NCBI GenBank assembly: GCA_022710715.1
Contig: JAKLGJ010000002.1
Span: 234,171 to 298,170 of the forward strand
DNA from: Candidatus Omnitrophota bacterium
GTDB taxonomy: Bacteria > Omnitrophota > Gorgyraeia > Gygaellales > Profunditerraquicolaceae
DNA: 64,000 nucleotides
Direction of reading: 5' to 3'
Under the pieces are notes generated by a model. It had not been told where the DNA came from, did no database searches, and was given only the letters and a program-made list of their open reading frames with translations. Below are positions 2,466 to 64,000 of this stretch, one piece after another (the first letter of the stretch is position 1; each line of letters opens with the position of its first letter). A program made the translations under genes and the position numbers.

Positions 2466-2506
2466 GGTATCCTCCTTGTTTTGTCTGTTATTTCTGTTTA
2501 TAGTCT

Positions 2507-4135: not shown

Positions 4136-4140
4136 AGGGC

Positions 4141-6154: not shown

Positions 6155-6160
6155 TTGGCC

Positions 6161-8374: not shown

Positions 8375-8410
8375 TATTTCCTCAAATTTAGATATATTTA
8401 GACAAGCTAG

Positions 8411-8439
8411 ATTATATAGCAATGCTTAAAATTTGTCAA
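8411..8439 (-). promoter_or_regulatory. consensus sigma70 promoter for the TonB_C-OEP gene (TTGACA - 17 nt - TATAAT on the minus strand).
   Basis: Plus-strand ATTATA 8411-8416 and TGTCAA 8434-8439. Confidence 0.6.
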
Positions 8440-8447
8440 GAGTTATT

Positions 8448-8474
8448 TGATACGGTATCAGTGATACGGTATCA
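8448..8474. promoter_or_regulatory. two tandem 13-bp perfect palindromes, TGATACgGTATCA (8448-8460 and 8462-8474). Candidate dimeric-regulator operator in the divergent promoter region.
   Basis: Direct reading. TGATAC and GTATCA are reverse complements. Confidence 0.55.
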
Positions 8475-8556
8475 ATTGGTATTATCGGCAAACGTGGCAA
8501 TAAAATCAGTTAATTTAAACTTTTTGTTAAAGCAACAAAAATATAGCTCCGCTGCC

Positions 8557-8591
8557 TTGACAGTGCCCTTTCTGTATGTTACATTTTGTGT
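8557..8591 (+). promoter_or_regulatory. sigma70-like promoter (TTGACA 8557-8562, 17 nt, TACATT 8580-8585). It places the TSS at the A of ATG 8592, giving a leaderless mRNA.
   Basis: Spacing read from the sequence. No SD precedes ATG 8592. Confidence 0.45.
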
Positions 8592-8927
8592 ATGGTATGC
8601 AAACTATGCGGTAATGAATTCCAGCCTAGCAAATATCACGCCAATCAACAGGTTTGCGGCAGCGCGGAATGTCAGAAGACGAGGCAGCTGCAGAACCAGA
8701 AGGAATGGCGCCAGCGCAATCCGGATTATTTTAAATGCCTCGGCCAAGAACAGGCTTGGAAAGAGAAGCGCCGGCGTTATAATCGCCTCTGGAAAGTCAC
8801 GCACCAGGATTTCCTCAAGGACTACGATCAAGATCACAAAGAGCAGCGCAGGGAATATATGCGCGGCTACATGCGCCGCTACCGTAGTCAATCGTTAACA
8901 GAGAAAAAAGTTAGTATAATTACTTGA
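8592..8927 (+). CDS. small basic Zn-ribbon protein (MVCKLCGNEF...QVCGSAEC then a Lys/Arg/Gln-rich tail), FmdB-like flavour. Leaderless start.
   Basis: CxxC..CxxxxC ribbon. The track ORF uses TTG 8586; ATG 8592 is preferred. The TGA stop at 8925-8927 overlaps the -35 of the giant-gene promoter. Confidence 0.45.
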   Translation: MVCKLCGNEFQPSKYHANQQVCGSAECQKTRQLQNQKEWRQRNPDYFKCLGQEQAWKEKRRRYNRLWKVTHQDFLKDYDQDHKEQRREYMRGYMRRYRSQSLTEKKVSIIT

Positions 8928-8952
8928 CATAGCCATTATTAACGATTATACT
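8924..8952 (+). promoter_or_regulatory. consensus sigma70 promoter of the giant gene (TTGACA 8924-8929, 17-nt spacer, TATACT 8947-8952).
   Basis: Direct reading. Confidence 0.6.
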
Positions 8953-9015: not shown

Positions 9016-9092
9016 AAAAAGGCAAACCAAGAGAAATCTTGGGACGCAAAGCCACGGATCCTCGAGAGAGAAACTTTCAGGATAGCCGAGTT
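9016..9092 (+). ncRNA. candidate c-di-GMP-I (GEMM) riboswitch aptamer. GGCAAACC (9021-9028); P1 6-bp stem with GAAA tetraloop (9027-9042); GGGACGCAAAGCC (9041-9053); P2 (ACGGATCC ... GGATAGCCGAG, to ~9090).
   Basis: Same architecture and near-identical conserved blocks as the Vibrio Vc2 aptamer, as remembered: GGCAAA-CCAUUC-GAAA-GAGUGG-GACGCAAAGCC. Confidence 0.6.
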
Positions 9093-9120
9093 ACCGAAAT
9101 GAGTAGCTCGGCTTTCTTGT
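9084..9120 (+). terminator. intrinsic terminator / expression platform. AGCCGAG-16 nt-CTCGGCT hairpin followed by TTCTTGTTT. Its 5' arm is the 3' arm of riboswitch P2, so the two are mutually exclusive.
   Basis: Inverted repeat 9084-9090 / 9107-9113, then a U-rich tract. Confidence 0.55.
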
Positions 9121-9138
9121 TTAAACGAGGGTAAGCCA

Positions 9139-9237
9139 ATGTATGCCTGGCGAAAAACAATCTGGTTTAAAACAGTAGCCCTGACCATGGTCGGGGTATT
9201 TCTGTTTTCTGAAGTTACCTGGGCTGCCAGGTCAGAT
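9139..9237 (+). other. domain: N-terminal signal peptide / membrane anchor (MYAWRKTIWFKTVALTMVGVFLFSEVTWAARS).
   Basis: Hydrophobic core and AxA-like site. Confidence 0.6.
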
Positions 9238-24200: not shown

Positions 24201-27200
24201 TCATGGGAACTGGTCAGCGATTCCGCAATCCGCGACAACATCTCCGGAACCGTCTACAGCGCTTACCAGACCCGCAACATCCCGGTCTACAGGATCCACG
24301 GCGAATTCAACGCATAATATCGGCGGCGCCTTCTTCAGCGCAGCCGCGATGGCGCCTCTAAGCATGACGGTGGTGAATCCTGAAGCAATCACTAACGCAG
24401 GCAACGTAGGGATTGTCGGATTCATCACCATGATCGGCGCGTTCACCTTATCCATACTGTTGAGCGCGCATAAGGACAGCGTCACGGTGATCAGAGCCGG
24501 ATTGATCAGCCTGGCCGCAACCGGGGTTGTTGTGGCCGTGCTGATGTTCGGCAATATCGATCTTGCCGGGATCGCGAGCTACCTGGCGGATTCAGCCGTT
24601 TCCGTCATTTCCAGCCTGCCGGCTGTTCTGGGCGTGGTCGGTTTCGCCGGTAAACCGTCATTCGACAAGGAACTTGACGGCGGCAGATCGCAGAAGCTGT
24701 TCGCGAAGATGACCATTCTCGGGCAGAAGATATTCGAGGCGTTGCAAAAACTGTGGCGTTACGGCGCAGTGGTGGCTATGTTCGGCACCCAGGAAAGCTT
24801 CGATTTGAGAGAAGTTTCCGTGATCCCCGTGGAAGCGAGACGCCGGCAGGAGAACGAATTCGGCGACGGCGGAAGACACGGGAATACCCACAGCGACCCG
24901 TTACGCGCCGTGATCAATGATCCCAGCTTGATGGGCGTAAAGATCAGGGGGAGAGAAGATGATTACGCGAGGATCTTTGCTCTGAAAATCGACATGGCGC
25001 TGGATGCTTTGAAGAAAAACATCGCGCCCCGTACCGCGCTGGTGATCGGCCCCGGTTCTACTGTGGTGGAGCCGCAGACGCTGGCAGCCAGATTCCCGTC
25101 GCTGGCAGATATTTACATGGTAGAGCGTGCGCCTATGAATCTGTCGCTTCTGGGTAAGCAGTATCTCGAGGCATTCGGCGAGTCCACCGCGCGGATACAT
25201 CTTATATACGGAGATGTCCGTTCCTTGCCTTTCGCGGATGACTCGATCGACCTGGCAGTCGGATTCAAGGTTCTGGTCGGCGAAATTTTCAGGGAGGAAG
25301 ACGACCTGCGCTCCGCCTGGAAAGAAACGGAACGGGTTTTGAGCAGCGAGGGGACCGGCATTGTCTATCAGACCCGCTTCCCGGATTTCGAACAGAGAGC
25401 AACGTTCAAATATTTGCAGCTCACGCTTTCTTTAGGACCGGAGCAAGCGAGCTTTAAGCAGCGTATTGCTTACCGCGCGCAGCTGGATGCGCCTGAACTC
25501 AACAGCTGGGCCGGCGACCATATCGGCGATATCGTGGTCTGGACCAAGGCAGAGGACGGCGGCAGAAAACTGACCGACGATGAAGCGATCGCTATTGTCA
25601 GGCAAGCGTACGCCTCCAGAGGGATTTATTTCGAAAAATTAAGCGGCAATGACGCGCAGGAGATTCTCGCGGCAGCGGTTAAGCAGGCGCAGGCAAGAGC
25701 CGACACTATGGCGAATCCGCAGGAGCAGAGCGAATCGCTGCCGGGGCTGTACCGCCGGGCGAATCAGGCTTTGCTGGTCCTGGTGCCGCTCGGATTGATC
25801 GGCCTGGGCGGGGTGATGGCGAAGGATCAACTGCATTTCGCCGAAGAGGGCGATATCGCCAAAGATATCGTCAAAGCTATTTACGCCGTCAGCGCGATCA
25901 ACGACCAGATCAACGAATTCAATCCGCTCATCGCTTCTGCGGCAGTCACCGGTCATCACATCGAATTGGGGAAAAATCCCCGCTGGGAATCATATTCCTG
26001 GGATCTGGATCAGACCACTGATGTCCGGACCCGAGAAGAAATAGTGGTCAAGCTGGATAATAACCAGGCAGGCAATAAAATCGTGGTCCAGTTATATGAC
26101 ATCAACACCCTGGATGACGAAAGCCGGGGTCGTTCCAGCGCGATTGTATTGAACGAGACCGGGGTCCAGGAAGTCCGCGTGCCCATCGACAGTATCATGG
26201 GAGCCAATCGAACCATTATCCGCAGGATCGGCGTGCATGTGGGCCGCGAAGTCTGGGGTCAGGATAACAATCCTGCGACTGCCAGGATCACCGTGCTGGA
26301 CATTGATCTCGCCGGAGAGCGGCCGCTGCCCGGAACCGGCGCGCCTTCAGTCATCCCCGGGTTCGGGCTCTGGGAAGTGTTCGGCGCTTTGATTGCCGCA
26401 ACCGGCATCATTCATTTACGCAAAATTATCTTCACCAGCCCGCAGGAAGATATCGTCAGAACAACCTTAACTGAAGGAGCTGTAGATATCCGCGGGCCTC
26501 CGTCTTCCGACACCGAAACCGATCCGGATGGCGGTAAAGTCACCGCGCGTGACGTCGCAGCCAATGCCGTTATCTTCGGACTCGGGGCTGGAATAATTTC
26601 ACTGATCGTGTCTTTCTTCGGATTGCCTCTGATCGCAGGTTCAGGCGTAGTCGTCTTAGCCACTCTGGCCATAATCGCCGTGGCCTTCGGCGCTTACTGG
26701 TTATTCACCACCAGACTGAATTCCGAGACCACCCAGACCTTTAACCAGGCGTTGAATAAGGCCCTGGAAGCCAACGAAAAATATCAGAAGCTGGATTCGA
26801 AAGAACAATCCAGGATCCGCACTCTGGTCAGAAGAGCCAAAAACGCGCTCTTCATCAAAGATCAGCAGCTGGCTTTCTCCCCGGCAGCCAAATTTCTGTC
26901 CAATCGCGATATCAAAACCGGACGCCTCGCCGGTTACGCTGTTTCCGCAATCGATGCCGTGTTCCAGGTCGTATTCATGCTGGTGCTGTATACCTTCCTG
27001 CTCAAGCATTACCTGGTGCCTTCGGCCCAGGCGATCAACGCGTTTTCCTCCATGATTCCCGAGGATACGCTTGACGCCATGGTCAAAGATGCCATTCGCG
27101 ACCTCAAGGAAAGCCAGCAGCTTTCCCCGGCTATGCAGAAAGCGGTCACCGCCAAAGACATCCTCACCTTAAAAGTACTCTTCGATTACATGGATGAACA

Positions 27201-30200
27201 GATCGATCATTTCGGCGAGCTGACCGTCGAGAATAAACTGTATATCGTTCCGCTGGCTTATTTCGTAGGCGCCAAAGCGTTCTTCTCTCTGGTAACCCAG
27301 AGAATCGTGATCGCCATCGCTTCCGGCTATATCGCCGGTATCCTGCTGCCTCTGGCTATTCCCGCATCTATTCTGACTACGGAACTCTGGTCTACGATGC
27401 TTCCGCTGTCCATCAAATTTACCGTCACGCCGTATCTGATCCTGAACAGCTTTATCGTCATCTATCTATTGAGCCTGCAGCAGCTCTGGGATGCCAACCT
27501 GCCGTTGGTGCGCGCTTTTGAAGCCGGCAGGATCACCGGATTGAGAATGCTTGGCCTGGCCCTGATCAATTCCGCGATCATCCTGATCCCGGGCACAATT
27601 TCGATGATGCTGGTTTCCGCGGAAATCGAAGCCGCTTTAAAAATAAGCGCTCCGTTCCCGTTTCTCAGAGATGCCATGAAATGGATGGAAGAGATTATTT
27701 ACGGCGCCAACGGCAGGACCGGTCTTGGCCAGGCGATCCTGGTGAAGGTAGGCGATTTCCTGGGCATCCAGCTGGTGCCGACGGTCTATGATCCTCTTGC
27801 CGCGGCACTGGGCCGGCCGGATTACCAGACTACCGGAGTATTGATGAATCTGTATACCGGCCAGCAGGCTGCCCAGAAAGCCGGCGATCCGCTGAAAGTT
27901 TCGTTGCTCAACGCGCTTATCCGCGGCGTCGAATCCGGCGATATCAAATTCTCGATCGATAATCCGCTGATTCCCAGCGCCGCCGCCGCCGAGATCACCG
28001 ATGCGAATGTGCTGAAGACCGTAACCTTGCCCCAGACCATCGATGTGGCGGCTGCCGAGAAGTTCATTGCCAACTCCAAAGGCGAATACGGCCTGTATGC
28101 CAGCCATAACGGCGAGAAGGCGGCATATACCTATGATCAGGCGCTGGTGGTGATGACCTTTATCGCCAAGGGCGACGAAGCCAATGCCCGGGCATTGCTG
28201 GATATTTACGCGAATAAAATTCCGAAACACGCCAGCTCCCTGTATTACAACGGTTATTACGCCGACAGCCAGTCCTATGCCGTTCAGGAAGGCATCGTGC
28301 ATGTCGGACCGAACGCCTGGATGGCCCTGGCTATGGCCCAGTACGACACCCGTTTCAACAGCGATCGGTATACCGGAAACATCAAAGGGATTGCCGACGC
28401 GATCAAACTTTACCAGAGACCCAACGGCAGTATTTACGGGGGTCCCACTGTCAGTTGGGTCTCTACCGAACATAACCTGGACGCCTTCGTCCTGTATAAT
28501 TACCTGGCCACCACTTCCGGCGAGGCCAAGTATGTTGAAGCCCGCGACAAAGTCGAGAACTGGCTGCTTACCGAAGCTTACTCCAACGGTTCGTTCTTGA
28601 GAGGCCAGAACGACAATATATTCGCCACCGACACCCAGGCCTGGGGCGCTTCGATTCCTGAATTACCGCAGCAGGTCGATCGCCAGGCATTGCTGGCTTC
28701 CGCCGAGCAGAATGCTCAAGTGACCGTTACCTTCAACGGAAAACAGGTGACCGGATTCGATTACGACCGCAGCTCGCAGCAGGGTACGCCGGTGATGGTC
28801 ACTCCGGAATGGACCAGTGAAATGGTCATTGCCTACGCTATCAACGGCCAGCAGGCCAAGGCCGAAGCGACTTTGAAAGAACTGGCTAAACTGCAGCTGG
28901 CTAACGGCGGATTCCCCTATGCCACCCAGGCGGGCGCCGACACCGGCCACGGCTGGAAGACTCCCGGAACCGGCGGTTCCTTAGCCGGCACCACCTACGC
29001 GATCATGGCCCAGAAAGTATTCAATCCGTTCGACATTTCCGGCACGAGCGTTCCCGCTACTGCGCAGCCTTCTCCTGTGACGACTCCTGTGACGACTCCG
29101 GTGACGGTAACTCCGGTAATCACCGCGCCGGAAACTACCGCGCAGCCTGTTCCGTTCACCACTTTGCCGGTGCCCTTCGTCAACGGCACAATCAATGTTA
29201 CGACCAACTGGACGTTCGTCAATCAAACCGTCAACGGGACCGAGATCAGAGGGCCTCCGGCGTTCAACATTACCGCGAACCAGACTGCTACCAACGCCAC
29301 TTCTTTCGCGCAGGCCGTGTTTACCGACGCGCTGAACGTACATCCGAACGCATTAAGGATCGACCCGGCCGCCGTAGCCAATCTTACCGTTCCCGATGTC
29401 TACACCTTTGCCAACAGCAAGGACATGCTGGTCAGCTTCGACGCCGACCGTACCGACGCAAACACCACCTATATTTATTCCGTAACTCCCGTAGCCAAAG
29501 CGCAGGCCCTGGCGCTGCTGACCGAAAAAGCCAATGCCGCTGCTACTCCGGAAGAACGCCAGTCCTACGAAACCAGGATCGCAGCCTACAACCAGGATTA
29601 CGGCTATACCCTGACGCCGGTGGCCGAGAAATCCTCTTACTCCTCCCAGACTTTCTACAATCTGGACCAGGGCATGTATGTGCTGGAAGTCTGGAAAACC
29701 GGCGTGGATCTTACCGATAAAGACAGTGAAGTCGCTTCTCTGGAACGGGTCACCCAGCCGGTGCTGGTGGATGTGGTTATCGATACCGCCAACCGCTTCC
29801 CGGCCCTGACTACCCACGTGGGGTATCCGGCGGGCGACGGATTCGGCGGCGCCACCGTGGAGAAGATCCTTGAAGTCAACCCCGAGACCAACCTCAAGAC
29901 TACCCGCGACCTGTATACAGTCAGCAGCAACGCGGTGAAACTGAACTTCGATTTCGCCGGCATCAAGGACGGCACTAAGGCCGCAGCGTTGAAGAAAGAT
30001 ATCGCCGGGATGATCGTGCTGCGCACCGATACCGGCACCAGCCGCATCGAATCGTTCGCCGTGCCCAAGTCCGATGCCGCGCAGGTCTATCCTTTCGAAT
30101 TCGTGGATACCACCACAGAAACCGGGCATACCTATGAATATACCGCTTATGTCTACGGCAACAATTACACCAGCAGCGAGGAATCCGAGCCGGTGCTGGT

Positions 30201-33200
30201 CAAAGTGGGCAATCTGGTTGAGCCGATTTCCCAGGCGCCGACGCTGACCGTATACGGCACGGAAGGCAAGCTGCATGTGATGATCGAGTTGACCGAGTTC
30301 AAGGATAAGGTCGGCACCAGGTACAACGGCCCGCTGGTGGGCGCTTACGAAGTCAAGATTATCGATACGAAGACCGGCGTGGAAGCGTTCAGCGAGGTGA
30401 TCGGCGCCAATTACGACGCTTCCAAGCATAACGGCCTCTGGGACGAAGAGATCCGGCCACACCTGGCTCTGGACCTGGGCGCCGGCGATTACGATCTGAT
30501 GGTCAAAGCCTGGGAGCGCAATCCGCTGGAGTACAGCAATTTCAAGGGTTCCAGTCCGTGGGCAGTCAAGCATATTTCCCTTGAAGCCGAGAACGCCTGG
30601 CAGACCAGGATCTACGAGAATGAAGCTCCGTTCTTCACCCAGGAAACCAGGGATATGAAGCTCAAGGACAACACCCGCGATTTCTACGTCACCTGGGATG
30701 CTCCGATGGAAGCGGATTTCGACAATTATATTTTCCAGTTCTCCTTTGACCAGAAGTACTCCACCGACGCCGCTAAAACCTGGTACACCTTTACCCTGCC
30801 CAAGAGCCAGCAGGGCTTCCATGTCGCGGTCATGCCGGAAGACGTGAAGAACTACTTCACCCTGGCTAACGGCGTGTACAGCGGCAAGGTGGACTGGAGG
30901 ATCAAGAACGTCCGCGATACGGATTCCGTCAAGATCGGAGACATCTCCTCGGATTACGTCTTCATGAGCCGCAACCTGAATATTCGCGCCGAGGATGTGG
31001 ATGCGTTCTCGCGGGATATCGCCGCTCGCCAGCATTCTCTCCAGGACGTCGGGTATGTCTATAATTCCATCCCGCACACCCTGCTGGTGGAGAACCGCTT
31101 CAGCGAGACCGAGGACAACAAAACCTATCAGTATGCGCTTCAGCGTAATTACGAGATTTTGACCGGCAACAAGACCGAGCTGTTCAGCAGCGAGCTGTAT
31201 CGCATCGAAGGCAATAAAGAATGGACCTTCATCCACGGTCTGTACCCCCGCGAGAATAAAGAAGCGGTTTTCAACGGCAGGATGACTTTTAGAGAAGCCG
31301 CCACTATGGAAGGGATCAAGCTTCCGGGTTCCATATCTTCCGAATTCCGCGCAATCTATCCCGAAGAGACCGAGTTCAATTTCTACACCGAGACCATCCG
31401 CGGCATGGAGATGTACAAATTCTATCATCCGTCTTATTCCCGTCTGCCGGCTCTGGAATTCACCCGCGACGGCATCTCCGTCTACGACATCGCCACCCAG
31501 GAGAAAGCAGCTTACTACAAGACAACCAGCGACCTGGTATTCAACGAGCATCCCGTCGGAGTTATCCAGGGCGCCGATATGTCCACCGAGCTGATGGCCT
31601 TCCTGGAAGCCAAGGGCGTGCGTATCAACGCCGGCCGCAAAGATAATTTCAAGGCGGTCCTGGATCAGACCATCAGCCTGATGCCCAAGGCGATCATCTG
31701 GGAAAAGGCAGCCTCCAACGGCAAGACTTCGTATCTGATCTACGACAGCATTCATGACGAGCCGGCCATCGTCGTGGACGATAAAGTGTTCTTCACCCAG
31801 GTCCTCTGGAAGGGCATGATTGTGCAGTACGTGTTCAGTAAGGAATACCGCGATATCCCGCAGACCACCCCGGTGATCGCCGACGGCAGCATGAAGGTTA
31901 AGAGCGGGTCGGACTCTTTTGCGGTCAACGTGTGGGATCCGGCGACCAATCAGACTTCTCTGCTGATGCCGGAGACCGTGGTGGATACCTATGAAGTCCG
32001 CGACACTGCCAACAACATTCTCTTCACCGCCTTGCTCGAAGCCAACTCCCAGTTCGGCCGGGTGCTCGCCCAGCAGTCGAAAATGAAAGACGCCGCGGGC
32101 AATGAAGCAACCTATATGTACGTGGTGACCAAATTCTCTGAAAAGGATATCTACGAACCCCTGGAGTCGGTGTTGCTCAAATATAACGCCGGTAAACAGG
32201 TCTGGGAGAAGGTGACCGGGACTACCACCGAAGCCAAAGAATCTGCGCAGGCAGTCGCGCAGTATAATGACATGCCGGAATGGATGCAGCAGGAAGTGGT
32301 TAACGTTACCGCGTTCATCAGCCATACCCAGAAGCCGGCGAACCTGGTCAAGTCCGCCGTGGTAACCACGGAAGGCGAAGTGTACCATACCTGGGTGGTC
32401 GAGGGCGACGCCGAAGGCCGCATCGTGTTCATGGATCGCGGCGGCGATTTCACCTTCAACGCGGATTTCTTCGGCTACAGCAATACCCCGCTGCGCGGAT
32501 ACATCATCAATAAGGCCAGCGGTAAGATCTACGCTTTCGAGAACAAGGACGGCAAAGAATCAAAGATCCTGCTTAACGGCGCGGAGTATATGCTGGCTAA
32601 CGATGAAGATGACGATTTCATGCGCGTTATGTTCCAGGGCCTGGACGCCGCCGGCGCCAGAACCGACGCGCCGTTCTTCAGATGGTATCCGTCGTTCGAT
32701 CCCATCGGCGGAAGATACAATTACGAGCAGAGAGGGTATTTTACCATTACCGGCCAGTCCGCTACCTGGGTGCCGTTCGAGCAGACCGACGCCAGCTGGT
32801 TCGACAACAAATACGTGATCCAGGAAGCTAAAGTCTACAAGCTGGAGATGATGCCCGACAGCAACCAGGTGGAAAAGAGATATTCCCACAGCATCTTTGG
32901 TGACGCGCTGATCTCCAGCACCGCCCAGACCGCAGAACTCCAGGGCTTGGGCACGCTGGCTCGCACCGCTCCCAACGCCGGCGTCCTGGATAATCCCGTT
33001 TACCTGACCGCGCAGGAACAGGTCGAGCTTTCCGATCTGCTTGCCAACGGCTTCCCGGCCCGCAAATCGCCGGTCGAATATGCGAATGGAAACAAACTTG
33101 TACGGTATTATCCTCTGACTTTTGGTCGCACCGAGCAGATTGTGGAAAGCGTTAATGAATACGTCATTAACCTTAACTGGCAAGAAGATCCGCAAGGCGG

Positions 33201-36200
33201 ATATTACGCCAAAGCTGTGGTTCTTGATAAAAATGGTTTGGGGGTTAAGAAGGTAATTTCTACTCCATCAAACCAAGTGGTCTATGGGGAATTGGTGAAT
33301 AATACTATACGTGTAGCATACAATGTCGCAACGCATGAAGATTTAGACGGATATATTCATTCATATGCTCAAGCATATGGAGAGAATGGGGATGAATTGG
33401 CTTTACGTCAGAGGATCATTTATAAATTCCTTCCTATTTCGGGTGAGGATCAGACTGCTAATTTAAGCACTGTCGCAATCCCGATGCAACAATATTATTT
33501 GGCGCAGGATCAATTTGCGGATTCACTCATAGAAAAGAGTCCGGTTTCGGAAAGGGAAAGCCAAACCACAGTTAAAATATGGCAATATCGTTTAGAAGAT
33601 ACCTTTGGTATTATGCCGCGAGCTGTTTCTTACTCCAGCGAAGAAATCGAATTGGTCGAATTTGATCATAAACAGAAAGAGGTTGGGTTATACAATACAA
33701 CAACCGCGACAATAGAGACAATTCCGGTTAATCAAATATCGCCTTTTGACTATGCGCTGGTTTATAACGTCCAATCTTTGAACGCAGAAAAAGTTTCTCA
33801 TCAAGAAATCCGGTTGCCTAATAATGTGAAAGTTCAGGATATTTACGAATCCCAAATCGGCCGCGCGGTCAATAAGTTGCCTTGGACGTCCGGCACTGAA
33901 ACTATACAGTATAACCGCGATCTCCCCTACGAAGATCCGGTGATATCGTTTAATAGGGCCACCGGCCAGTGGACCAAGAAGTGGGATCGGAAGATTTACG
34001 ATCCTAGCAAAGAGGCGTACGCGGAATTCAAAACAACCGAACGTGAGCTGCAGGCCCCGGATAAAGTTGCCACTTGGACTCACACATTTGATGTGTACGG
34101 TAAGGAAAAACTTCATAAAGACGTAATTGGGGATGCGTCAAGAGAAGTCGTGGCCGGAATTAATTCTTTGCTGGGCAATGTGTGGCTATTGATGGCTTTG
34201 GCGGTGGGGATCGTAACATGGTTAAGTATTCTCTTGGGGGTTCCCCGCATAATCAGATGGATGAATGAGGGCAAGAAAAAGCAAGGTGTTCGGTCCGAGA
34301 TTGACTCGGCGGATATCGATTCAACGGATGCAGCAGCGGACCAGCGTTTAATTAATCGGGATATGATTCTTGAAGTGTTGGAATCATTCGTTAATAAAAA
34401 AGGTGAGATCAAGAATAACCTGATTATAATCGATGCCATGGAACGAGTTGGTGCTGTATTGCCGGCAGATTATAGCCTTGAAGATATCGAGAACTTGATG
34501 GGTTACGAAGCGCCGATTAAAGATTTGAAAGAGTGGATCACCCGCAATAGAAATGAGGAGTTGGCTGCTTTGTTGACAAAGGCCAATATTAGCGCCTTCG
34601 AATTTACCGTATTGACACTTGTCATTTATAGCATCGGTAAAGAATACAAATATGCGAATCCCCCGGTAATGTATTATCTTATTGATAAAGCAATCAGAAT
34701 GATTATTCAGGGCAAACGGAACGAGATAATTCCCGAAATCCGTTCTGATGTAGAAGCCATGAGAGATTTCTTGAACAGAAGCTATCCGCCTGTTCCTCAA
34801 GGCGGTATGAGCAAAGATTGGTTGCGTCGATATAGCAGTATTGATGAAAAAGGGCGAAAGAAGGAAGAATTGCGCGGCGGTTTGTATGAATCGTTCCTTA
34901 TGAGCGAGCGCAGCGGTTTGACTGTAGCGCAGAAGGCAACGTTGAGGAAAGATTTGGAAATTTTGCGCGCTCATGAAGCCGCGATGGATGATCTCGATCG
35001 AGAAATCGACCTGTTAAAACATCAGAAAGAAATTACTGCCGGGGAAAAAGATAAGGATAATCTAACCGTACAGATTGACAAGTTATCCGGTCAGCAGAAA
35101 GCGAACAAGGATATCAAGGCAGCCATAGAAGAGCAAATTAGGAATCAATTCTGGCTGAATCCCATTAAGAAATACTACGTTACATTTGAAGATCTCGAAG
35201 ATCGGTTGAATGGCTATAAAGAAGATTTTGATCTGATTGCTGAATGGGATGCGCTTGAAGGCAACAGTAAAGAAGACAAGAGAGACTATCTCATAGGGAA
35301 AGGATTGAATTTAAAGACTTATCCGGATGAAGTCGGAATCAGACAATTCTTAAAGAATATCTGGCCTGTTATTATTCCGGTTATTCCTTCGGTACTCGCG
35401 GTTACCTTTGTGCCATTGTTTGTGTCCATGCCTTGGGGGTTGCTAATTGCGCTTGGGGTTGCTTTAACTGGTTTAATACCTTTAATTAAAGGGGATTTGG
35501 GCTACAGCAAGAGCATGGGGCCGCTTTCTTTCGATCAAACCCGCCAGATAAGAAACACCTACATTGCGTTTACTTTGTTTACTGTCGGATACACCGTATG
35601 GAATTTTGTGTTACTTTCGTCATCTTATCCGGTTGTGGGGACGATTTTGTTGACTTTTAACCCCGCCTTAATGGTGACTACAATTATGATCTTTGGGTTG
35701 GTTTATTTCTTCTCTGTTTTGGCAATTTGGGCAATTATGCCGATCATTCTTACTCAATTTGCCTATGTGCAAGGAAAAATTGACGGGATTGGAGCGATTA
35801 GAGATTGGAAAGAAGCGTTGCAGCAAGATAATATTAATGCAGCTAAGAAGCGATTTACGAGTTTCTTGCCAAACCAGTTAAGAACGCGGTCTGACGACCT
35901 GTGGAATGTTTTTGTAGATACGTACATCAATAAGATGGGAGAATTTAATAAGATTAGAGCTGAAGATAGGGAGCTCTTAAAGAAGATCCTGAAAGCAGAA
36001 AAATTAACTGAAATAGAAGTCGCGCAGAAAAATAAGATGCTAATAGAAGGTTTGGGCGATAACGAGGCACATGATAGAATACGGCGATTTATTGGAGCCT
36101 GGTTTATTGAATCTCCAGTGTCTTTTATCTGGGACGAATGGCCCATGTTAACAGCGATTATTACTTGTTTTGACGAAGCAATTATTACGGAATTCAAAAC

Positions 36201-54200: not shown

Positions 54201-57200
54201 GATATCGTCTCGAGCAGTCAGACAGATAGCGCAGTTGATCGAGGCGCGGGCCACGGAAGAACAAAAGGCGGATTTCTGGCAGTGGATGCTTTATCACGAG
54301 CCTTACGGCGCGAAGGTGCACAGATTTAACGATATTAATACCGTTGAACAGGCCAAAGATCTTTTGCTGTCCGGCGATATCAATAGACTGAAGGATTATA
54401 TCGAGTATTCGGAAGGCATAGCCAATCATTCCAGCCGGGGAATAAAAACAAAGTTCGACAGCTTTATGCACCGTTTTTACGGTATACGCGCCGTTCTGTT
54501 CAGAACCGGCGCTCCGAGATTTGACCCCGAGCTCCAGGCGAAGATCTGCGAGATCGCGATGAATGATGTAGCGCAAGAAGCTCGAAATCAGGGTATCGTA
54601 GAGCTTGATTTGAGGGTGAAACTGGATACGACCAATAAGTCTCTGGCGGACGAACGGTGTATGGAATTCGTGAATGCCGTGATCGCTGCGGCTGAACAGG
54701 CCGAAGCGCAGTACGGGGTTAAGATCAACCTGGTCATTCCTTTCCGCCGCGACCTGATCGCCCAGGCTCTTGATCAGGGCTATACCGCCGATACCATGGA
54801 GCAGTGGATCGAAGAACGCTGGATCGCGCCGCTCAAGACGCTGGATGCCGTAAAGCTGTCCAGATTCACCGGTATCGACCTGGTGGGCAATGAACTGGGT
54901 AATAAGCCGCAGATCGAAGCGTCCGTAGCGCATTTCGATACCATGGCGGAGAAATTGAGCGTCGTGACCGGCAATCAGATCGAAATCCACGCTCATGCCG
55001 GGGAGAATTTCGATCACGACTGGGACTGGGGCATCCGCAGCATCGAAAATCTGGTGTATGGTTTGAATCACCTCAAATATATCGTGCATGGCGCGGCGCT
55101 GGCCAATGCCGATGAAGCGCGTTTCAACAGGATCTGCTGCGTCATGAAAGAGAAGGGCGTGGAAGTGCTGATCAGCATCAGCTCGAATTTGCACACCGGC
55201 GCGCTCGAGGATATGCGTCAGCATCCCGCTCCCCGGTTGCGCGACGCCGGAGTCAAAGTCATCGCCACCACCGATGATCCCGCTTCTTCCGGCATGATCA
55301 CTCTCGCCGGAGAGGAAGCTCTCCTCCGGGAGCTTTACCGCAATGACGGCGGCAAAGATGAGCTCCTGAATGAGGAGGCTGCGCGCGGGTATATTGACAA
55401 TGGCTGGCCGTTTAATTTTAAAGAAACCCTGAAACAGGCTTATCGCCAGGAATGGGAGAAAACCATGCGCACGGCTGCCGGCGATATCGCGGCAGGAACG
55501 TTGAATAAAAACAACTGGTTCAATCCCGCCATCAACCCGAACCAGGAATTCGTCACTTTTGTCATTCATCCGGACCGGGAAACCGCCCGCACCATTCACG
55601 ACGTGACCAGAAGCCTCGAAGATCTTATGCCCGAGGTTGCGCCGTCAGAGTTGCGCAGCGCCGGCATAGATGATCTGCCTGCGATGTCCGCGTGGTATCA
55701 GGCGCCGAATACGTATCATACTACCGTCTTTGCCGTCAAAGGTTTTCTGCCCCGGAAGCAAGCCGTCGAATTGTACCGATCGGTGATGTCAAGAGAGAAT
55801 CAAATCAGCCGGGCGTTGGCGAAGATACCGTCATTTGAAGTCTTTATGGAAGGGTTGATGATGACGTCTAACGGGACCTTGTTCGCCAAAGGTATTATCA
55901 CCAGCGGTAACTTCTTCCATGTCAAGAAGCTGCTTAAGGAAATCAGCTCTGAAGCGGATCCGGTATTTGCCAGACAGCCCACGCTGCTGTTTGCGCATAT
56001 GAGCCTGGCCAGGATCGTGGGAAAACTTGATCCCGCGGCCTTCGAAGCTCTTAAGGAAGAGATCAGCCAGCGGCAATATCTTAAGATGGGTTCATTTACG
56101 GTCAGCGCGGTGCGCTTCGCACACACCAACTCATACATGGACTGGGCGGACAGCGACTACACACTATTCGACCTCAACGACGGCGGATTAGTTGAAGAGA
56201 TCACCAGCGATGACCAGAAGCTGGCAGCCGTCCTCTACCATATCGCCGGGCAGCTCTCTATCGAGAAATTCAAGGGTTTGACCCCGGACGAAACCCTGTC
56301 TATGCAGGTGGGGATCAACCGGGGTAAGGCAGGGACATCCGGCCCGATGATGCATTATCTTTCGCCCAGGGCCGGGGAAGATAAACCCAGAGAGATAATT
56401 ATCTACGTGCTGGAAGGCGCGATCGAAGCCGTGGAGCTTGACCGTGCGACTTTGCAGGAGAAGACCCAGGTGATCCAAGCCGGGGAATTAGTGCAGTTTA
56501 TCGGACCGCATACCATTCGTTTCCTGGAAGATTCTCTCTTGCTTGAAATCAAGGAAGGGCCGTATCCCGGACCCAGGAAAGACAAGGTTCTGGTATCGGT
56601 TATTCCCGACAGCAAGGTGATCGCGGAGATCGTTGACGCCACGGGCGAAGTGAATGATCTGCTGGCGGGTTTGTCGGCCGCGGTCAAAGCGCTCGATGAT
56701 AACAACGATTTCATCAAAAAGCTCAATATCGCGTTGCGCATTGTGGATAGCGAGAAATTACCGGTCGCATTTACCATTAAGGTCCAGGAAAATGTCGGTT
56801 TGCTGGGCGCGGTGGGAGAGGATAAGAAATCGGTTTTGATCGATTCGAGTATGCTGGCCAGAGGCCCCCCGCAACTCGCCGCTTTTGTCCTCCTGCTTAA
56901 TGCGTACTCCATGGCCTATCCGGAGCAACTCGAGGCCGTGAAAAGAATCGTTCTGCGCGCCCTTTTCAGAGAGCATGTCTATAATCCCGAACCCGCTCAA
57001 AGCATTCTCACCAGAATGCTGGAGCAGGCTTCGCTTCCCGCGGACTGGCTTGATTCCCTGCGCGAGTTGCAGTCGGTGATCGACATGCGTCTTCCTTCCA
57101 TCCTGAACAATCCAGCCGCATATACAAAGCTCTACGACTACCTTACCTATATGGCGGTTATTGCCTATGACCCGGCGCAGGGCCTGGGAACCAAATCCTA

Positions 57201-60200
57201 TTTCGGCGGCCTGATCAAAGCGGTATATTCGCGCGTGCGCGCTGATCGTCCCGGCGCCGCCTTTACCTATAATTATCCGGCCACGCAGGATATTAAGAAT
57301 CCGGCAACGGGAGCAGATCTTCTCGCCGCGCGGGCCACGCATCCCGCAGCCGACAAATTCTGCGAGCTCTGTAACAACGTCGCCATCAGGATCGAAGAAC
57401 TGGCTTTGATGGCGTTCATCCCGGCCGTTCATCGGATCTGGCGGTTGCGTCCCAATCAATTCCCCATTTATCGTAATCATGTGTTGCTTGTTGCTCTGGA
57501 TGACGACGGCGAGCTGGCGATAGACGGCCAGCGGATGACCGCGGAATACCTGGAAGACCTGATCTATATCAGCAAGAACTATCCGCTGCTGAAGATGTTC
57601 TTCAACGGCTACGGCGCAGGCGGGACCCAGCCGCATTTCCACGCCCAGGGATTGTTCGAGCATCAGCTGGGCTTCGAGACCCAGCCGCGTGAATTTGTCG
57701 GTACGTTCGACGGAGTGAAAGTTTCCCGCATCCGGGAGTATCCTGCGGTGGTCCTGGTCCTGGAAAGCTCAAACCGCAAAGCCCTGGCGCAAACCGCCTA
57801 CGGATTCGTCGAGTATCTTAACGCGCAATCCAATCCGCACAATATCTTCTTCATCAACGGCGCAGTCTATCTCTTCCCCAGAGAATGGGAGATCCCGCCG
57901 CAGCATTTCCCCAGAGTCCGGTTCGGCTCGCTGGAAATGGGAGGCGAGATGATCCTGTCTTTCTGGGTGGATTACCTGAATATCAGCCAGGCAATGAAAA
58001 CCATGGTGCTGCAGGTGCTGGATAAGGTCAAGAATACAGCTGCATTGAAGCAGGACCCGCAGCAGCCCACCAGAGGAACTATCGATGAGGTATTGGCTGC
58101 AGCCGGCGTTGAAGAACGCGATGAGGTTGAGCAGATTTTTGCGGACATCAAGGCCCGCGGCGTGGATATTATCAAACCGGCAACACTGGAGCCGCTGGGC
58201 GATCTGATCGATCCGAACCTCGGCCAGAACATCCTCGACGCCATCAAGTACGTTACCATGACCGAGGAGCATTACGCGCAGATGATCGCCTGGGCCGGCG
58301 AAACGTTTAACGACGGCGGATACGTGTTCGCTCTTAACGGCGAGCATGGCGCGGGCAAAAGTACGCTGGCCAAAAAGCTGGTCGAGCTTACCGGCCTGGT
58401 GAAGTTCAGCGGCGGCGCGATGATGCGCCAGTTCGCCGCGCAGCGCGGCATGAGCCTTACCGAGTATACCGATACCTACCTGCTTTTGCCGGAGAATGTG
58501 CAGGAGAATGACAAAGTCAACGCCGCTATCGACGAAACGCAGGAGAAAGCTATTCTGGACGGCGATATCATCACCGAAAGCAGCCTGGGCGTTTATTTCG
58601 CCGGCAAGCACAAAGAAACGCTGTCTGGCCGGGGGATCAAAGTGGTCCGGGTGCTGCTGGTTGCGGATTCCCGCGCGCGGGCCGAGCGTTCGGTCAACGG
58701 CATCATGAATGGGACGCGTTCAAACGACCGACTGATGACTGTGAATGAAAAAGAAACGGAATTGATCGGCAGGGATATGTTCGATCAAAAGAAATTCCTG
58801 GGCATGACTAACGGCGAATTCGATATCTTCGAAATCCTGAATTACGAGATAGTTTTGAACGTCAGCGATACAACGCTGGAAGACGTTCCTGCGATGGCGC
58901 GGGCAGTGCTTGCCTTCGCCGGTTACCGGCAGGACGGCGGTACAATGAGGATCGCTAGAGAGAATGTTTCGACAAAAATAGTTATGGCGCGGGCTCCGGG
59001 TACATCTACCGTGGCAGGTGAGGATTCGGGGTCCGCGCTTTTCCATACTGACGGCGGCGAGATTGATCATCTGGTTGGTTCTATTGAGCAGAATGTGGAT
59101 TCCGGGTTAGGAGAGATTTTATATGGTAAAAATTGGCGGAAAGCCCTGGTAGCTTTTACTGATGCGCTGAATCAAGCTCAGCGTTTGTTGCAATCTGCCG
59201 AAGAGGAGAGTTATTCCGATCTCATCAAGCAGTATTATGCGAAAAACAGGTTTTTAACCGGCCGTGCTTTTTCCGGCAATACGAAAGAAGCCGTGCGACA
59301 GTTAATTACTCTCATTCGCAAAAAACGTCTTGAGGTCCTGGGAAATCTTTTGCTTCAAGAGGCTTTAAATAATCGGTATTTCCATCGGCCTGTTTATCTG
59401 GGCAAAGACGACTTGACTCTTATTCCATACGTGCATCAATTATATACGAGGTTGAATGAAGCGGAAATCCGCGACATTATAGCCGCGGCATTGTGGAAGA
59501 TGGGCGAGGAGACGCCGGCCGGACGAGCTTTAAAACAGACGGTAATAGATGAAACTGGAACGGAAGCAATAAAAGCCAGCATTAGAGATGCCCTCGGGTT
59601 TGTTAATAGGGAAGTGGGGATTGAAGGATATGAAATGCCCGGCGTTGATTACTATACGGCGCAATTAAGCAGAATAACATTTGAGAGAGATGATCCGCTG
59701 ATGGAAAAAATGAACGAGATAACCAGGGCCTTCTTGCAGGAATATCCTCAGACTGCCACTATAATCGATATGGGTGTGTGTGACGCAAGCTCTACGCTTG
59801 GTTTGGCAATGATGCTTGAGGGGAAGAATAAAGTGGTCGGGACCGATCTTTTGCTGAATTTCTATATTCTGAGTGACGGAGAATTCAAGTATGTTTTTGA
59901 TGCGTTCGGAAATCTTATGCAGATGCGGGCCGACTATATCCGGGCGGTGAAGCTGGGCCATTGGTTAGTGAAAGGCCGGGACAGCGTTTATGATTATGTG
60001 GAGTGGATTAAGTTCTCCCGCGAGTACGAAAAAGAAATATACCTGGATAGCAGCAATAGAGTAGAGACCGAAGTGGAGTACCGGGATTATCCATTATCCC
60101 GGGGCATTCAAGATGGGGAGGAAATTGAAATTTTCTCCGGTTTCGCCCGACTTGAAAGCATAGAGCGCTTATTCAGGAAGATGTATCTGGAAATGCTGCG

Positions 60201-63200
60201 AAAAGGCCAGGATAGCTATCATTGGCAGCGCTATTCCCTTCATCAGGTGAGTTTTTTGAATCCCGCGGTTTATGTGTTTAAACCCGAGAATCTCTCTTTT
60301 AAGGCGTGGGATCTTTTTGTTCCGTATCCGGAGAAAGCCAGTCTGATACGCTGTTTCAATGTATTGCGAGCGGAGTCTTATCGTCCGTATACCGACCGGG
60401 AGATACAACAGGCGCTGAAAGTGATGGGGAATTCGCTGATCAATAACGGGATCTTGATTGTTGGGAAAGCCTGGTATTCGGCGGGCGACAGAACCCGGAG
60501 CAGCATGGAGTATGACGTGTATAGGCGTGTTGGAGATGAGCTTGTATATGATCATTCGAAAGAATTGAAGCTTGCGGATAGAGGTTTCTCCATACAGTGC
60601 GTAGAGAGGCAATGGGCGCACAACAAGGAAGCCATTGATTTGTCCCGCGAGTATGCGGATATGGCCTCGCGACGCAGGATACTATCTTCGCAAACCATGC
60701 AGGAGCTGCGATTATGGAAGGATGCGATTGCTCCTTCTCAAACCAGGATGGAATTGCTCGATGAACTGAGGGCAAGGGAAAAGGCCGGTGATGTGAATAA
60801 AGAAATCGCGATAAAGCGGACTCTTGACGCGCTGGAGAATGGTGAAATAGATCTTAGCGCATTCCCGGAATACCAGGACGGCGGGATCAAGGTTAAGTAT
60901 TACAAAGGCAACGGCGAAGGCGCGCTGGTGCACAAGATCGCCGGGGATATCCAGAGCGAAGGGTTGATCAAAAAGCTGTTTGATTCCGAGCTGAAATGGT
61001 GGGATAGCGTCAAGAAAGCGTATATCGATAACAAAGAGCGCCTGGGATGGCTGGATATCCTGACCCGGCTGGAGAAGAAAGGGACGCTGGACTATATCGC
61101 CGGCCTGATCAAAGAGGCCCGCGCCCAAGGGATCGAATATGTGGTGAATATCGGGATCGGCGGCTCGGGCAACGGCGCAGTGTCCCTTAAAGGATTGTTC
61201 AAAGGAGTTCCGGAAACGGATAACTTCTTTGTGCTCGGATCGGTCGAACCCACGGTGATCGCCAATCTGGAAAGATCATTGAGCGACGCAAGCGGAGAAG
61301 TGCGTATCGACAAGTCGCTGTTTATCATCATTTCAAAATCCTGGACCACGGTGGAGACCGACCAGCTTAAGAATCATTTCTACGGCCTGGCCAAACGTTT
61401 CTATGAAAAGGAATACCCGCAGGCCGATGCCGAAGAGATCGCCGAAAAAGCCGGCCGTCATTTCATCGTTATCTGCGATCCGGGCAAAGCCGAAAATGAA
61501 CTCCGGGAAAAACACTTCCGGGCTGTGGTCGATCACGATTTGACTACCGGCGGTCGCTTCGCATCCTATTTCGACGTGGTCGGGCTTCTGCCTGCGGCGG
61601 CCATGGGGATCATGGATGCGCTGGTAGCTTCCGGTAAAAAAGGCATGCAAGCTTGCCGGCAGCCGGAGGTATTCAAATCCACCGGCGAGATCGTTAACTA
61701 CGGCGCATTCCTGGCGGCATTCCTTTATATTAATGAGATGAAACGGCGCCACGCCACATTCATTTTGCCGGGCGCGCTCAAGGATTCCTATACCTGGCTC
61801 GGCCAGATCTTCGTGGAGTCGCTGTGCAAGAAAGACCGCTACAACGATAAACGCGGCATTTTCACCGTGCTGGCCGACGATAACCTGGATCCGGCAGCCT
61901 GGGATGCTACCGAGAATTTCTTCATCTATATCCATCTCAAAGACGACGTTTCCCGGCAGCAGGAAGCGCTCAAGCTTGGTCGCAGCGGTTTCTCCGTGCT
62001 GGAGATCGTTCTCGACAGCAAAGAGGATATCGGCGAAGTGATCGCGATGTTCAATACCGGCATCGCTTTGACCGGCTACCTGATGAACGTGAATTTCGCG
62101 GATGAACCGGGGGTCTGGGTGTCCAAGGATCTGGTGCTGAAAGTGTTCATTCCTCTTCTGGAAAAGAATTTCCGCGGTCTCAAGAGCGAGTTCCTTAAGA
62201 TGATCGTCGGGCTGGCCGAGCACAAGGAGAAGCTGGAAAGCGAGCACCTGGTGCTGGATTATTGCTATATCTTGAAGGAAAAGTATCTCAACGCCGAATT
62301 TGAAGCCATGCTCGAGCAGATCAGCCTGGCGGAAGGCAAGCATGTAGAGACTATCCGCAAGGACATGCCGTCGGTCCTGGCGGCAGTACTTCTGGTCGCA
62401 GCCCGTCACCGTCCGCTCTTCGATATGCTCATTTACGGAGACGTCGACAGCTACGCCGGAGTGATGGCTGATTTCAGTTCCCTGGTCAGAGGACAGCTCA
62501 AAGTCAATCCCGGCGCCTACGCCGAGCCGGAAGCCCAGCACTGGTTGCACCAGGGGCTGCAGGACAGCCGGTCGTTGAAACTCCTGATCATCCTGGGCGT
62601 GCTCAATTACCGTTCGAAGGATATCGCCACTCCCAGCTACAGTCTGGATTTCGGCGAGCTGACCCTGCTCCAGCGGTTGGCAAACTATCTGATCCTTTCC
62701 GGCGGGTTGCCTAAGCTGTACGAGGCTCTGGAGAATGAACCGGTGGCCCGGGAATTCTTCGACAAAGTAGCCGGTCAGGGCCTGCTGGAAGCGGCTTCTC
62801 CCCAGCTGGGGATCAACATCGATCTGAAGGAGCATAGTCCAGAAGCGCTGGCCGAACTGCAGTCGCTCTTCGAGAAATCATCGGATATCGTGGAAAAGAT
62901 GCTGCGCATTCAGCGCGGCGAGCGTATCTCCGTCGCGCAGGTCGTGGCGGAAACCGTGGAGATCCTTGCCAGACATATTGCCGATATCGCGGATAATCTT
63001 GACCTGGAGGATACGGGAAAACTGCTGGATATGCTTCAGGAAACCCGCGAACTGATTATCGCGGGAGTGGGCAGAAGCGGCATCGCAGCGCAGATCAGTA
63101 AGTTGTGGCTGAAGAAAGTGGGCATCAGGGCTGAAGTGATCGAAGCCGGCGACGACTCTGTGTCTTACGATTACGGCAGAAGCCCTGCGGACCGGTTCAT

Positions 63201-64000: not shown

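Follow-up and report, generated by a model that had tools for sequence, protein, structure and literature searches.

A giant Omnitrophota gene downstream of a putative cyclic-dinucleotide riboswitch encodes a serial array of unrelated enzyme modules

Giant genes of the Omnitrophota account for about 10% of genomes that are themselves very small. The class of proteins they encode was first described in 2022-2023, and its function is still enigmatic; a beta-helix tubule has been reported for it. The type protein, that of Ca. Velamenicoccus archaeovorus LiM (Kizina 2022, as cited in Seymour 2023, PMC10066038), has 39,678 amino acids (aa) and 42 transmembrane (TM) helices. It is more common in attached cells, where its peptides are up 3-fold, and its proposed role is coat formation or the degradation of surface polymers of the prey (Seymour 2023, PMC10066038). 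Altogether, 46 proteins of >30,000 aa have been described, and the Archaeovorins were characterised by a signal peptide at the N-terminus together with a C39 (or S8) peptidase, many TM helices, and glycosyltransferase (GT), methyltransferase (MTase), NUDIX and peptidase domains (West-Roberts 2023, 10.1101/2023.11.21.568195). HEAT/TPR repeats are their most frequent domains; PPDK_N is also frequent, PGI, TPI, FBPase and PGM are occasional, and the IDI fold and SecA_DEAD are present as well (same source). A 2026 preprint (10.64898/2026.06.07.730766) adds a 'multi-enzyme metabolic cluster' class among Omnitrophota long proteins of up to 147,155 aa, in a catalogue centred on the class Gorgyraeia from groundwater and the Baltic Sea. 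Here we analyse a stretch of 64,000 nt from an uncultured Candidatus Omnitrophota bacterium (the window; assembly GCA_022710715.1, contig JAKLGJ010000002.1, positions 234,171 to 298,170), which holds the first ~18,300 codons (18,287) of a giant gene. Residues are numbered from the Met at nt 9139.

Judged by its sequence, the window protein belongs to the described Archaeovorin/multi-enzyme class; its organisation has already been published and is no new kind of system. The assignment goes by the described features of the class. In common with Archaeovorins, it has an Omnitrophota host, a product of >30,000 aa, a signal peptide and then C39 in an N-terminal region without other annotation, many TM helices, and GT, methyltransferase, NUDIX, PPDK_N, phosphoglucose-isomerase and IDI-fold modules, set in a sequence that is mostly 'dark' and poorly conserved between relatives. 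With the multi-enzyme metabolic class it shares the tiling of one chain by many distinct Pfam families (at least 15 along the window protein), none of them dominant by copy number. Also shared are a content of sugar-metabolism, kinase/phosphotransferase, methyltransferase and NUDIX domains and a signal peptide with TM topology. A first-pass annotation of the same DNA, made by a model from the letters alone, knew of no described protein with this organisation, a statement overtaken by the Omnitrophota giant proteins with such features in West-Roberts 2023 and the 2026 preprint.

The differences lie in content. No HEAT/TPR, GT1/GT5, glycoside hydrolase or SecA_DEAD domain, unlike in Archaeovorins, occurs in the first 18,287 aa (the remaining ~36 kaa lie beyond the window), and the domain set and order differ from those of the multi-enzyme metabolic class. 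LpxC, formyltransferase and deaminase are not mentioned in the text of West-Roberts 2023 or of the 2026 preprint, nor are 2H modules in the text of West-Roberts 2023. The specific module set of the window protein extends the repertoire of the class. Further new aspects are the lack of internal repeats, the occurrence of LpxC among different neighbours elsewhere, a sharp compositional split and an upstream riboswitch. As a member of the class, this example has unusually recognisable modules with their catalytic residues kept.

Frame +1 contains no stop codon over 54,901 nt (9103-64000), compared to 398-1188 stops in the other five frames. The composition of the open reading frame (ORF) is that of an ordinary protein, not of a low-complexity repeat. 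A codon-usage log-likelihood model trained on its recognisable domains preferred frame +1 over all others in every unannotated stretch tested, and none of seven long ORFs on the antisense strand, the largest of 1,011 aa, had a hit in a Pfam search. The earlier view of one polypeptide-coding frame, as opposed to an operon with lost stops or to separate genes on other strands or frames, was thereby borne out. Its limits of 24349-64000 were drawn too narrowly, as the ORF starts at 9139 and extends beyond the window. The likely start codon is ATG 9139, with GAGGG 5' of it. We prefer it to later calls because the ATG, the signal peptide and the riboswitch are conserved; automatic gene callers place the start at 9817, 9832 or 9877, i.e., 226-246 codons too late.

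Beyond the window, the giant gene was traced through an identical flanking 466-aa protein on nine public contigs. Its product is called as 54,154 aa on a 914-kb ENA contig and as 54,149 aa on a 591-kb contig, and would comprise ~54,380 aa if the conserved ATG 9139 were used, which corresponds to a gene of ~163 kb. As public contigs give ~54,150-54,380 aa, the window represents about one third of the protein. The whole gene is contained in contig k141_570614 of ENA ERZ27257456. The NCBI metagenome-assembled genome (MAG) GCA_035453765.1 and a JGI digester metagenome contig end 6,663 aa into the gene. Four fetched loci (two from ENA, one each from JGI and NCBI) are 100% identical to the window across the shared 16,154 nt, and the strain occurs in anaerobic-digester-type metagenomes.

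The ORF translation was scanned against Pfam, NCBIfam and PDB sequences, both as overlapping segments of 4.8 kaa and as segments of 1 kaa. Recognised domains account for ~13-15% of the 18,287 residues. From ~aa 10,150 onwards, unrelated small-molecule enzymes, at least 13 in number, follow one another in an unbroken array, and most of them have intact catalytic residues (Table 1). Profile searches recovered 15 of the 19 domains called in the first-pass annotation, in the order it gave, and its picture of a serial array of unrelated enzyme folds holds: the families are distinct, and a self-BLAST of the window protein for internal repeats or a common linker returned no off-diagonal hits at E<1e-3. 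The lack of internal repeats also agrees with its statement that this is not a repeat-type adhesin. Its count of at least 20 folds was too high; we reach 15, or 17-18 with sub-domains and C39 included. A second 2H domain and a GalT/HIT-like site exist as motifs only, and a second cupin found no support; for this stretch, Pfam, NCBIfam, PDB phmmer and homolog searches all remained negative. Single-sequence AlphaFold2 of aa 15400-16400 gave a pLDDT of 34.5, too low for use.

Profiles of LpxC, PGI, PPDK_N and adenosine deaminase, on which the array claim had been staked, all hit, with catalytic motifs kept. Against solved LpxC structures (chains such as 6mo5, which we take to be Pseudomonas LpxC) the LpxC module matched with E 5e-35 and ~40% identity, as estimated from the alignment, and AEH, ARTF, HKLLDLYGD and AGH are conserved (E-H, T-F, HKxxD..D, GH). 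In E. coli LpxC, the Zn ligands are H79, H238 and D242, and the catalytic residues are E78, H265 and T191. As noticed before, the block lacks a Met, its start reading ...SRHQRTIAPFEG. The module scores 150 bits against an NCBIfam equivalog cut-off of 187, and its substrate may therefore differ.

The other modules present a similar picture. The formyltransferase retains the N-x-H and Asp catalytic residues, and the adenosine-deaminase-like domain its HAGE, HG and DDP motifs. GIGGS, SKS..T.E and GGRF are retained in phosphoglucose isomerase, Walker A (GEHGAGKST) is present in the CMP-kinase-like domain, as are the methyltransferase motif I and, in the 2H phosphoesterase, both HxTx motifs (HVTT, HITF). 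The cytidine-deaminase-fold domain retains its Zn ligands (H...PCQTC) with Asp in place of the catalytic Glu (HAD), and the first Nudix box is degenerate (HEIQEE). In the module related to phosphoenolpyruvate (PEP) synthase, the ATP-grasp keeps RSSATAEDLPxASFAG and the swivel keeps the TSH histidine. Matches end at ~residue 511 of the 846 of PEP synthase, and the PEP/pyruvate-binding TIM barrel was not found in the module. By its sequence, we take this module to be a PEP-utilising phosphotransferase, not a PEP synthase. Since catalytic residues are mostly intact, the modules look like working enzymes and not like fossil scaffolds. Compared to stand-alone LpxC, ArnA/Fmt, PEP synthase/rifampicin-phosphotransferase-type enzymes and PGI, identities are 31-43% and the catalytic residues are common to both. 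The differences are that LpxC, ArnA/Fmt, PEP synthase and PGI here are internal modules without a start codon of their own, and that the PEP-synthase-like module lacks the PEP/pyruvate-binding domain. LpxC, ArnA-type Fmt, the WbuC cupin, GT2 (glycosyltransferase family 2), PGI and SIS together make the envelope or sugar-nucleotide theme proposed earlier a reasonable one.

To look for the domain order in other proteins, 1.84 billion representatives were searched exhaustively by HMMER, with aa 11650-12849 (LpxC, Fmt and linker) as the query. The search returned 18,789 hits, and among the best 150 of these none matched both the LpxC and the Fmt part of the query. The best hit was an internal LpxC, 43% identical, in a 6,777-aa protein (P0003); other long hits embedding LpxC have 5,180 aa (P0040) and 1,744 aa (P0009). 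The architectures of the three long proteins are MTase-MTase-LpxC-Pkinase, Bac_transf-HATPase_c-HEAT-DUF218-LpxC and MTase-LpxC-MTase. On this sequence evidence, LpxC is a recurrent module of long multi-domain proteins whose neighbours are shuffled. The suggestion to look for a conserved or shuffled order among homologs thus led to a recurring LpxC and to no conserved order. Catalytic residues are invariant in five LpxC modules from long proteins (P0003, P0040, P0009, the 807-aa P0013 and the window protein), and an IEAGHxDH motif plus a C-terminal extension are common to the embedded modules, including that of the window. This points to a distinct 'embedded LpxC' subfamily, as far as sequence features can define one. 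A genome scan with the LpxC-Fmt segment and a metagenome scan with the PGI-SIS segment found no relative. A metagenome scan with the LpxC-module alignment yielded 80 loci, all ordinary lpxC genes in ORFs of at most 725 aa, and no collinear relative. Protein homolog searches gave two weak PPDK hits for aa 11700-13620 and none for aa 15990-16380 or the C39 region (aa 501-800); the word-index protein search does not reach relatives of the giant protein.

The composition of the chain changes sharply along its length. Only four Cys occur in aa 1-9000, three of them inside C39, compared to 35 in aa 9001-18287 (Fisher p 4e-7). Arg rises from ~1% in the first 2,000 aa, which are rich in Ser, Thr and Asn (S/T/N), to ~6% in the array, while S+T+N falls from ~35% in the N-terminal part to ~13% in the array and His shifts in parallel. 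This change falls at the GT2 catalytic domain. Processive GT2 synthases have their catalytic domain on the cytoplasmic side, and S-adenosylmethionine (SAM)-dependent methyltransferases, ATP-grasp enzymes, P-loop kinases and Fmt/ArnA require cytoplasmic cofactors. Because of the Cys-Arg-S/T/N split, its position at the GT2 domain and these cofactor needs, the sequence points to export of the N-terminal half and to an enzyme array that faces the cytoplasm, tethered beside the GT2 exporter. About 35 hydrophobic 19-mers were found in clusters (aa 5061-5171, 5543-6159, 8350-8867 and 9450-10153) by a crude Kyte-Doolittle scan, which is no trained predictor. The sole hydrophobic element inside the enzyme array is a two-helix hairpin at aa 12685-12722. 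Further upstream, the C39 domain retains its catalytic Cys (PPCGAV) and His (GHYVTV).

The leader of the giant gene carries an RF03167 aptamer 60 nt 3' of the promoter and 40 nt 5' of the ATG. The 3' strand of the aptamer is the 5' arm of the terminator hairpin, and the terminator belongs to the ligand-free minimum-free-energy fold (z -4.55), which would imply an ON switch. Two related loci (L005, 9305-9406, minus strand; L006, 9304-9404, minus strand) have an RF03167 aptamer (64 bits) in the corresponding position ahead of their giant ORFs, where promoter, aptamer, terminator, Shine-Dalgarno sequence and ATG are all conserved and base changes in the first aptamer stem appear to preserve pairing. 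No riboswitch was found by searching the more distant relatives L007-L009. The arrangement suggests that transcription of the ~163-kb gene is gated by a putative cyclic-dinucleotide signal. The c-di-GMP-I (GEMM) riboswitches occur upstream of surface, adhesin and pilus genes; the window likewise has the aptamer in the 5' leader of an envelope-associated gene with a terminator as platform. It differs from them in its GGC variant family RF03167, whose ligand is putative, and in the ~163-kb size of the gene. The texts of West-Roberts 2023 and the 2026 giant-protein preprint do not mention a riboswitch. Together, the clean outside/inside compositional split and the riboswitch make cyclic-dinucleotide control, cytoplasmic-face topology and LpxC/Fmt/PGI activity directly testable.

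The reading that we hold to be probable, with considerable doubt attached, is an Archaeovorin-class giant protein under riboswitch control, with an exported N-terminal part and a tethered metabolon in the cytoplasm. In such a protein, the leader terminator would keep transcription of the giant gene off until released by binding of a putative cyclic-dinucleotide-type ligand to the aptamer. The N-terminal ~9,000 aa, almost Cys-free, Arg-poor and S/T/N-rich, would be threaded out by Sec to form the surface part, and the TM clusters would anchor the chain. The enzyme array would remain on the cytoplasmic face, with access to ATP, SAM, formyl-tetrahydrofolate (formyl-THF), UDP-sugars and sugar phosphates, and might serve both the embedded GT2 exporter and the cell coat by supplying or modifying sugar-nucleotide and glycolipid precursors. 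In one possible route, the LpxC domain would N-deacetylate a substrate that the ArnA-type domain next to it would then N-formylate. Several points weigh against this reading. The topology derives from a crude hydropathy scan and composition, from which TM parity is not derivable, and TMHMM predicted most detected domains of the described proteins to be extracellular, although these predictions were called unreliable (West-Roberts 2023, 10.1101/2023.11.21.568195). The other two thirds of the chain, with whatever SecA-like domains they may contain, lie outside the window, and no family could be assigned to ~85% of the sequence. Given the Asp for Glu in the cytidine-deaminase fold and the degenerate first Nudix box, some modules may be inactive. 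The searches gave no relative that shares the domain order, which leaves the pathway idea without comparative support, and the ligand of the GGC riboswitch variant is putative. To a bolder extension we assign a low probability: a cyclic-dinucleotide-gated, membrane-anchored assembly line comprising a surface coat, formed by the exported N-terminal half, and a cytoplasm-facing array of intact enzymes (LpxC-type deacetylase, then ArnA-type formyltransferase, with cupin, PGI, SIS, kinase and PEP-dependent phosphotransferase modules). The array would make unusual sugar or glycolipid precursors, N-formylated or otherwise modified, for polymerisation and export by the GT2 synthase of the same chain. 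If true, the enzymes would be a tethered biosynthetic pathway instead of effectors that degrade prey, overturning the 'extracellular cell-wall degradation' reading of the class.

A serious rival, and the literature-favoured reading for the class, holds that the whole chain is exported as a cell 'coat' and that the array is displayed on the surface or delivered to prey, acting on the prey cell or entering it, so as to degrade or rewire envelope and sugar metabolism during epibiotic predation. The signal peptide and C39 domain, the 3-fold rise of giant-protein peptides in attached V. archaeovorus cells, the TMHMM placement of most domains outside and the apparent cyclic-dinucleotide control, typical of surface and attachment genes, are in line with it, and LpxC or other deacetylase, 2H, Nudix and deaminase domains could plausibly attack prey molecules. 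However, the extracellular space offers no SAM, ATP, formyl-THF or sugar phosphates, on which the MTases, ATP-grasp, P-loop kinase, Fmt, PGI and SIS depend. In Cys and Arg content, the array is of cytoplasmic type and unlike the N-terminal 9,000 aa, and Pfam scans of the window revealed no glycoside hydrolase, lytic transglycosylase or adhesin family. Delivery into the prey cytoplasm could, as a conjecture, reconcile the cofactor needs; overall, we regard export of the array as doubtful. Its cleavage into separate enzymes, for example by the chain's own C39 peptidase, with fusion as a device for co-expression or co-delivery, is a possibility that was raised by West-Roberts 2023 (10.1101/2023.11.21.568195) and that the retained C39 Cys and His and the long unannotated linkers between domains would allow. 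We consider such a polyprotein improbable, given that the double-glycine leader-type cleavage motif is absent from all 18,287 aa (1.2 expected by chance), that self-BLAST showed no repeated linker or junction sequence, and that C39 sits in the presumed exported part, far from the array. A polymorphic-toxin-like array of effector cassettes, one of the readings in the first-pass annotation, is very unlikely. Toxin payloads do include deaminase, 2H, Nudix and MTase folds, and there is a weak MafB19-deam match (E 3e-4, below cut-off). Yet the deaminase fits the housekeeping family dCMP_cyt_deam_1 far better and has lost its catalytic Glu, and array composition is of cytoplasmic type. Pfam scans of the 18.3 kaa detected no RHS, LXG, PT-TG, TPS, filamentous-haemagglutinin or other trafficking, pre-toxin or cassette domain, and no immunity-gene pattern is seen within the window, the C-terminus and downstream genes lying beyond it. 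Most modules, namely LpxC, Fmt, PGI, SIS and the PEP-synthase-like one, belong to anabolic housekeeping types, which to our knowledge have never been seen as toxins. An artefact, be it mis-assembly, chance absence of stops or an operon whose stops were lost through sequencing error, has a likelihood close to nil: nothing was found in its favour save the gene callers' disagreement on the start codon, and it is at odds with the stop-free 54.9 kb, the coding statistics for +1 throughout, the identity of the ENA, JGI and NCBI assemblies over the shared 16 kb, the agreement of the two longest in gene length, and the syntenic giant ORFs in relatives.

Table 1 Features of the giant gene and its leader within the 64,000-nt window
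Feature	Position (nt)	Strand	Basis
Sigma-70-like promoter, TTGACA-17-TATACT, 11/12 matches	8924..8952	+	both hexamers invariant in L005 and L006
c-di-GMP-I-GGC riboswitch aptamer, RF03167	9012..9099	+	71.6 bits (gathering score 59), E 5.5e-15, model 1-80
Terminator-like hairpin and U-tract, predicted expression platform	9084..9123	+	11-bp stem, then TTCTTGTTTA
Giant ORF, first 18,287 codons	9139..64000	+	no stops; conserved ATG and signal peptide; runs past the window
Signal peptide / N-terminal anchor (MYAWRKTIWFKTVALTMVGVFLFSEVTWAA)	9139..9228	+	read from sequence
Unannotated N-terminal region, presumed exported	9229..24318	+	composition, Pfam scans
Peptidase C39-like domain, aa 580-700	10876..11238	+	Pfam E 3e-8, 34 bits (cut-off 22)
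TM clusters A and B, ~12-13 hydrophobic helices around the weak MTase	24319..27615	+	Kyte-Doolittle scan
Weak class-I methyltransferase, aa 5315-5407	25081-25359	+	Methyltransf_11, 24.4 bits (cut-off 21.2)
Soluble 2,190-aa stretch, presumed extracytoplasmic loop; no Pfam hit, no Cys	27616..34185	+	+1 favoured coding frame
GT2/glucan-synthase segment between ~4 and ~11 TM helices, low third-position GC	34186..39597	+	Kyte-Doolittle scan
GT2 / Glucan_synthase domain, aa 9219-9457	36793-37509	+	Glucan_synthase 38.5 bits, Glyco_transf_21
Nudix/IDI-like domain, aa 10249-10384	39883..40290	+	NUDIX E 3e-6; YfcD and IDI matches
Class-I SAM methyltransferase, UbiE/MenG-like, aa 10659-10756	41080..41514	+	Methyltransf_25 E 4e-16
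Cytidine-deaminase-fold domain, aa 10949-11046	41983..42276	+	dCMP_cyt_deam_1 E 3e-12
2H phosphoesterase, aa 11285-11480	42991..43578	+	2H-phosphodiest 21.1 bits (cut-off 21)
LpxC-type Zn deacetylase, aa 11719-11999	44293..45135	+	E 7e-57
ArnA/Fmt-type formyltransferase, N and C domains, aa 12108-12419	45460..46395	+	ArnA best PDB hit E 5e-21; ArnA NCBIfam model 1.6e-36
Two-helix hydrophobic hairpin, short helices linked by TYYP, aa 12685-12722	47191..47304	+	hydropathy
WbuC-like cupin (weak), aa 12867-12941	47737..47961	+	TIGR04366 E 3.4e-6, 26.9 bits (cut-off 42)
PEP-synthase-type ATP-grasp (PPDK_N) and phospho-His swivel, aa 13138-13601	48550..49941	+	E 1e-83, 1e-16
Second IDI/Nudix-like domain, aa 14056-14164	51304..51630	+	IDI E 1e-9; NUDIX 0.011
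Adenosine-deaminase-like amidohydrolase, aa 15136-15388	54544..55302	+	profile and PDB searches
Motif-only candidates: second 2H and GalT/HIT-like site	55717..57648	+	motifs HTTV...HMSL (aa 15527), PHFHAQ (aa 16166)
CMP/adenylate-kinase-like P-loop domain, aa 16398-16587	58330..58899	+	Pfam, NCBIfam
Phosphoglucose isomerase (PGI), aa 17264-17668	60928..62142	+	NCBIfam 8.5e-43
SIS domain, 6-phospho-3-hexuloisomerase-like, aa 17943-18111	62965..63471	+	HxlB 7e-22

Relatives of the locus were found through its neighbours. The divergent gene at 6407-8374 (minus strand) encodes a TonB C-terminal domain (residues 64-138) fused to a TolC-type OEP channel, and this fusion is conserved beside giant ORFs in related Omnitrophota. 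Among species-representative genomes, all six loci with relatives of the TolC-TonB protein belong to Candidatus Omnitrophota or Ca. Undivivens MAGs. In the two closest relatives (61-62% identity), which come from sludge-digester-type samples, a syntenic frame stays open for at least 3,100 aa and runs off the locus. When the N-terminal ~1,700-3,100 aa of the relatives' giant ORFs (L005, L006 and L009) were compared with the window protein, only the first ~80 residues aligned. With only the signal-peptide region alignable, divergence of the N-terminal region is extreme. An Omnitrophota host is indicated indirectly, by the neighbour-gene relatives, synteny, and the shared leader and signal peptide. 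Large proteins with MgtE_N/FliG_M-like domains are encoded at 531-2510 (minus strand; 659 aa) and at 16671-21401 of locus L001 (2,320 aa).

Within the giant gene, third-codon-position GC (GC3) is 0.44-0.45 at 33139-39138 (aa 8001-10000, the TM/GT2 segment), compared to 0.62-0.75 in most other parts of the ORF, and the flanking genes are likewise lower in GC (0.46). The giant gene is a mosaic in composition, and its modules may differ in origin. The longest antisense ORF (29353-32388, minus strand; 1,011 aa) lies inside the giant gene and has weaker coding statistics than frame +1; it appears to be a shadow ORF, because the sense frame has high GC3. The antisense ORFs, lacking Pfam hits and with poorer coding statistics than frame +1, were rejected as real genes. 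Public annotations place a spurious small ORF on the strand opposite the Ser-rich N-terminus.

Upstream of the giant gene, two minus-strand genes without Pfam hits, encoding 542 aa and 466 aa, share a 267-nt repeat (81% identity; 4106-4366 and 6125-6385) that extends over their 5' ends and the DNA upstream of them. One repeat copy contains a weak GGC-riboswitch-like match (4176-4279, minus strand; 25.8 bits, E 0.003). At the position syntenic to the repeat, above-threshold c-di-GMP-I riboswitches occur in L005 (11946-12099 and 19251-19327) and L006 (11941-12035), and the whole locus may be a cyclic-dinucleotide regulon.

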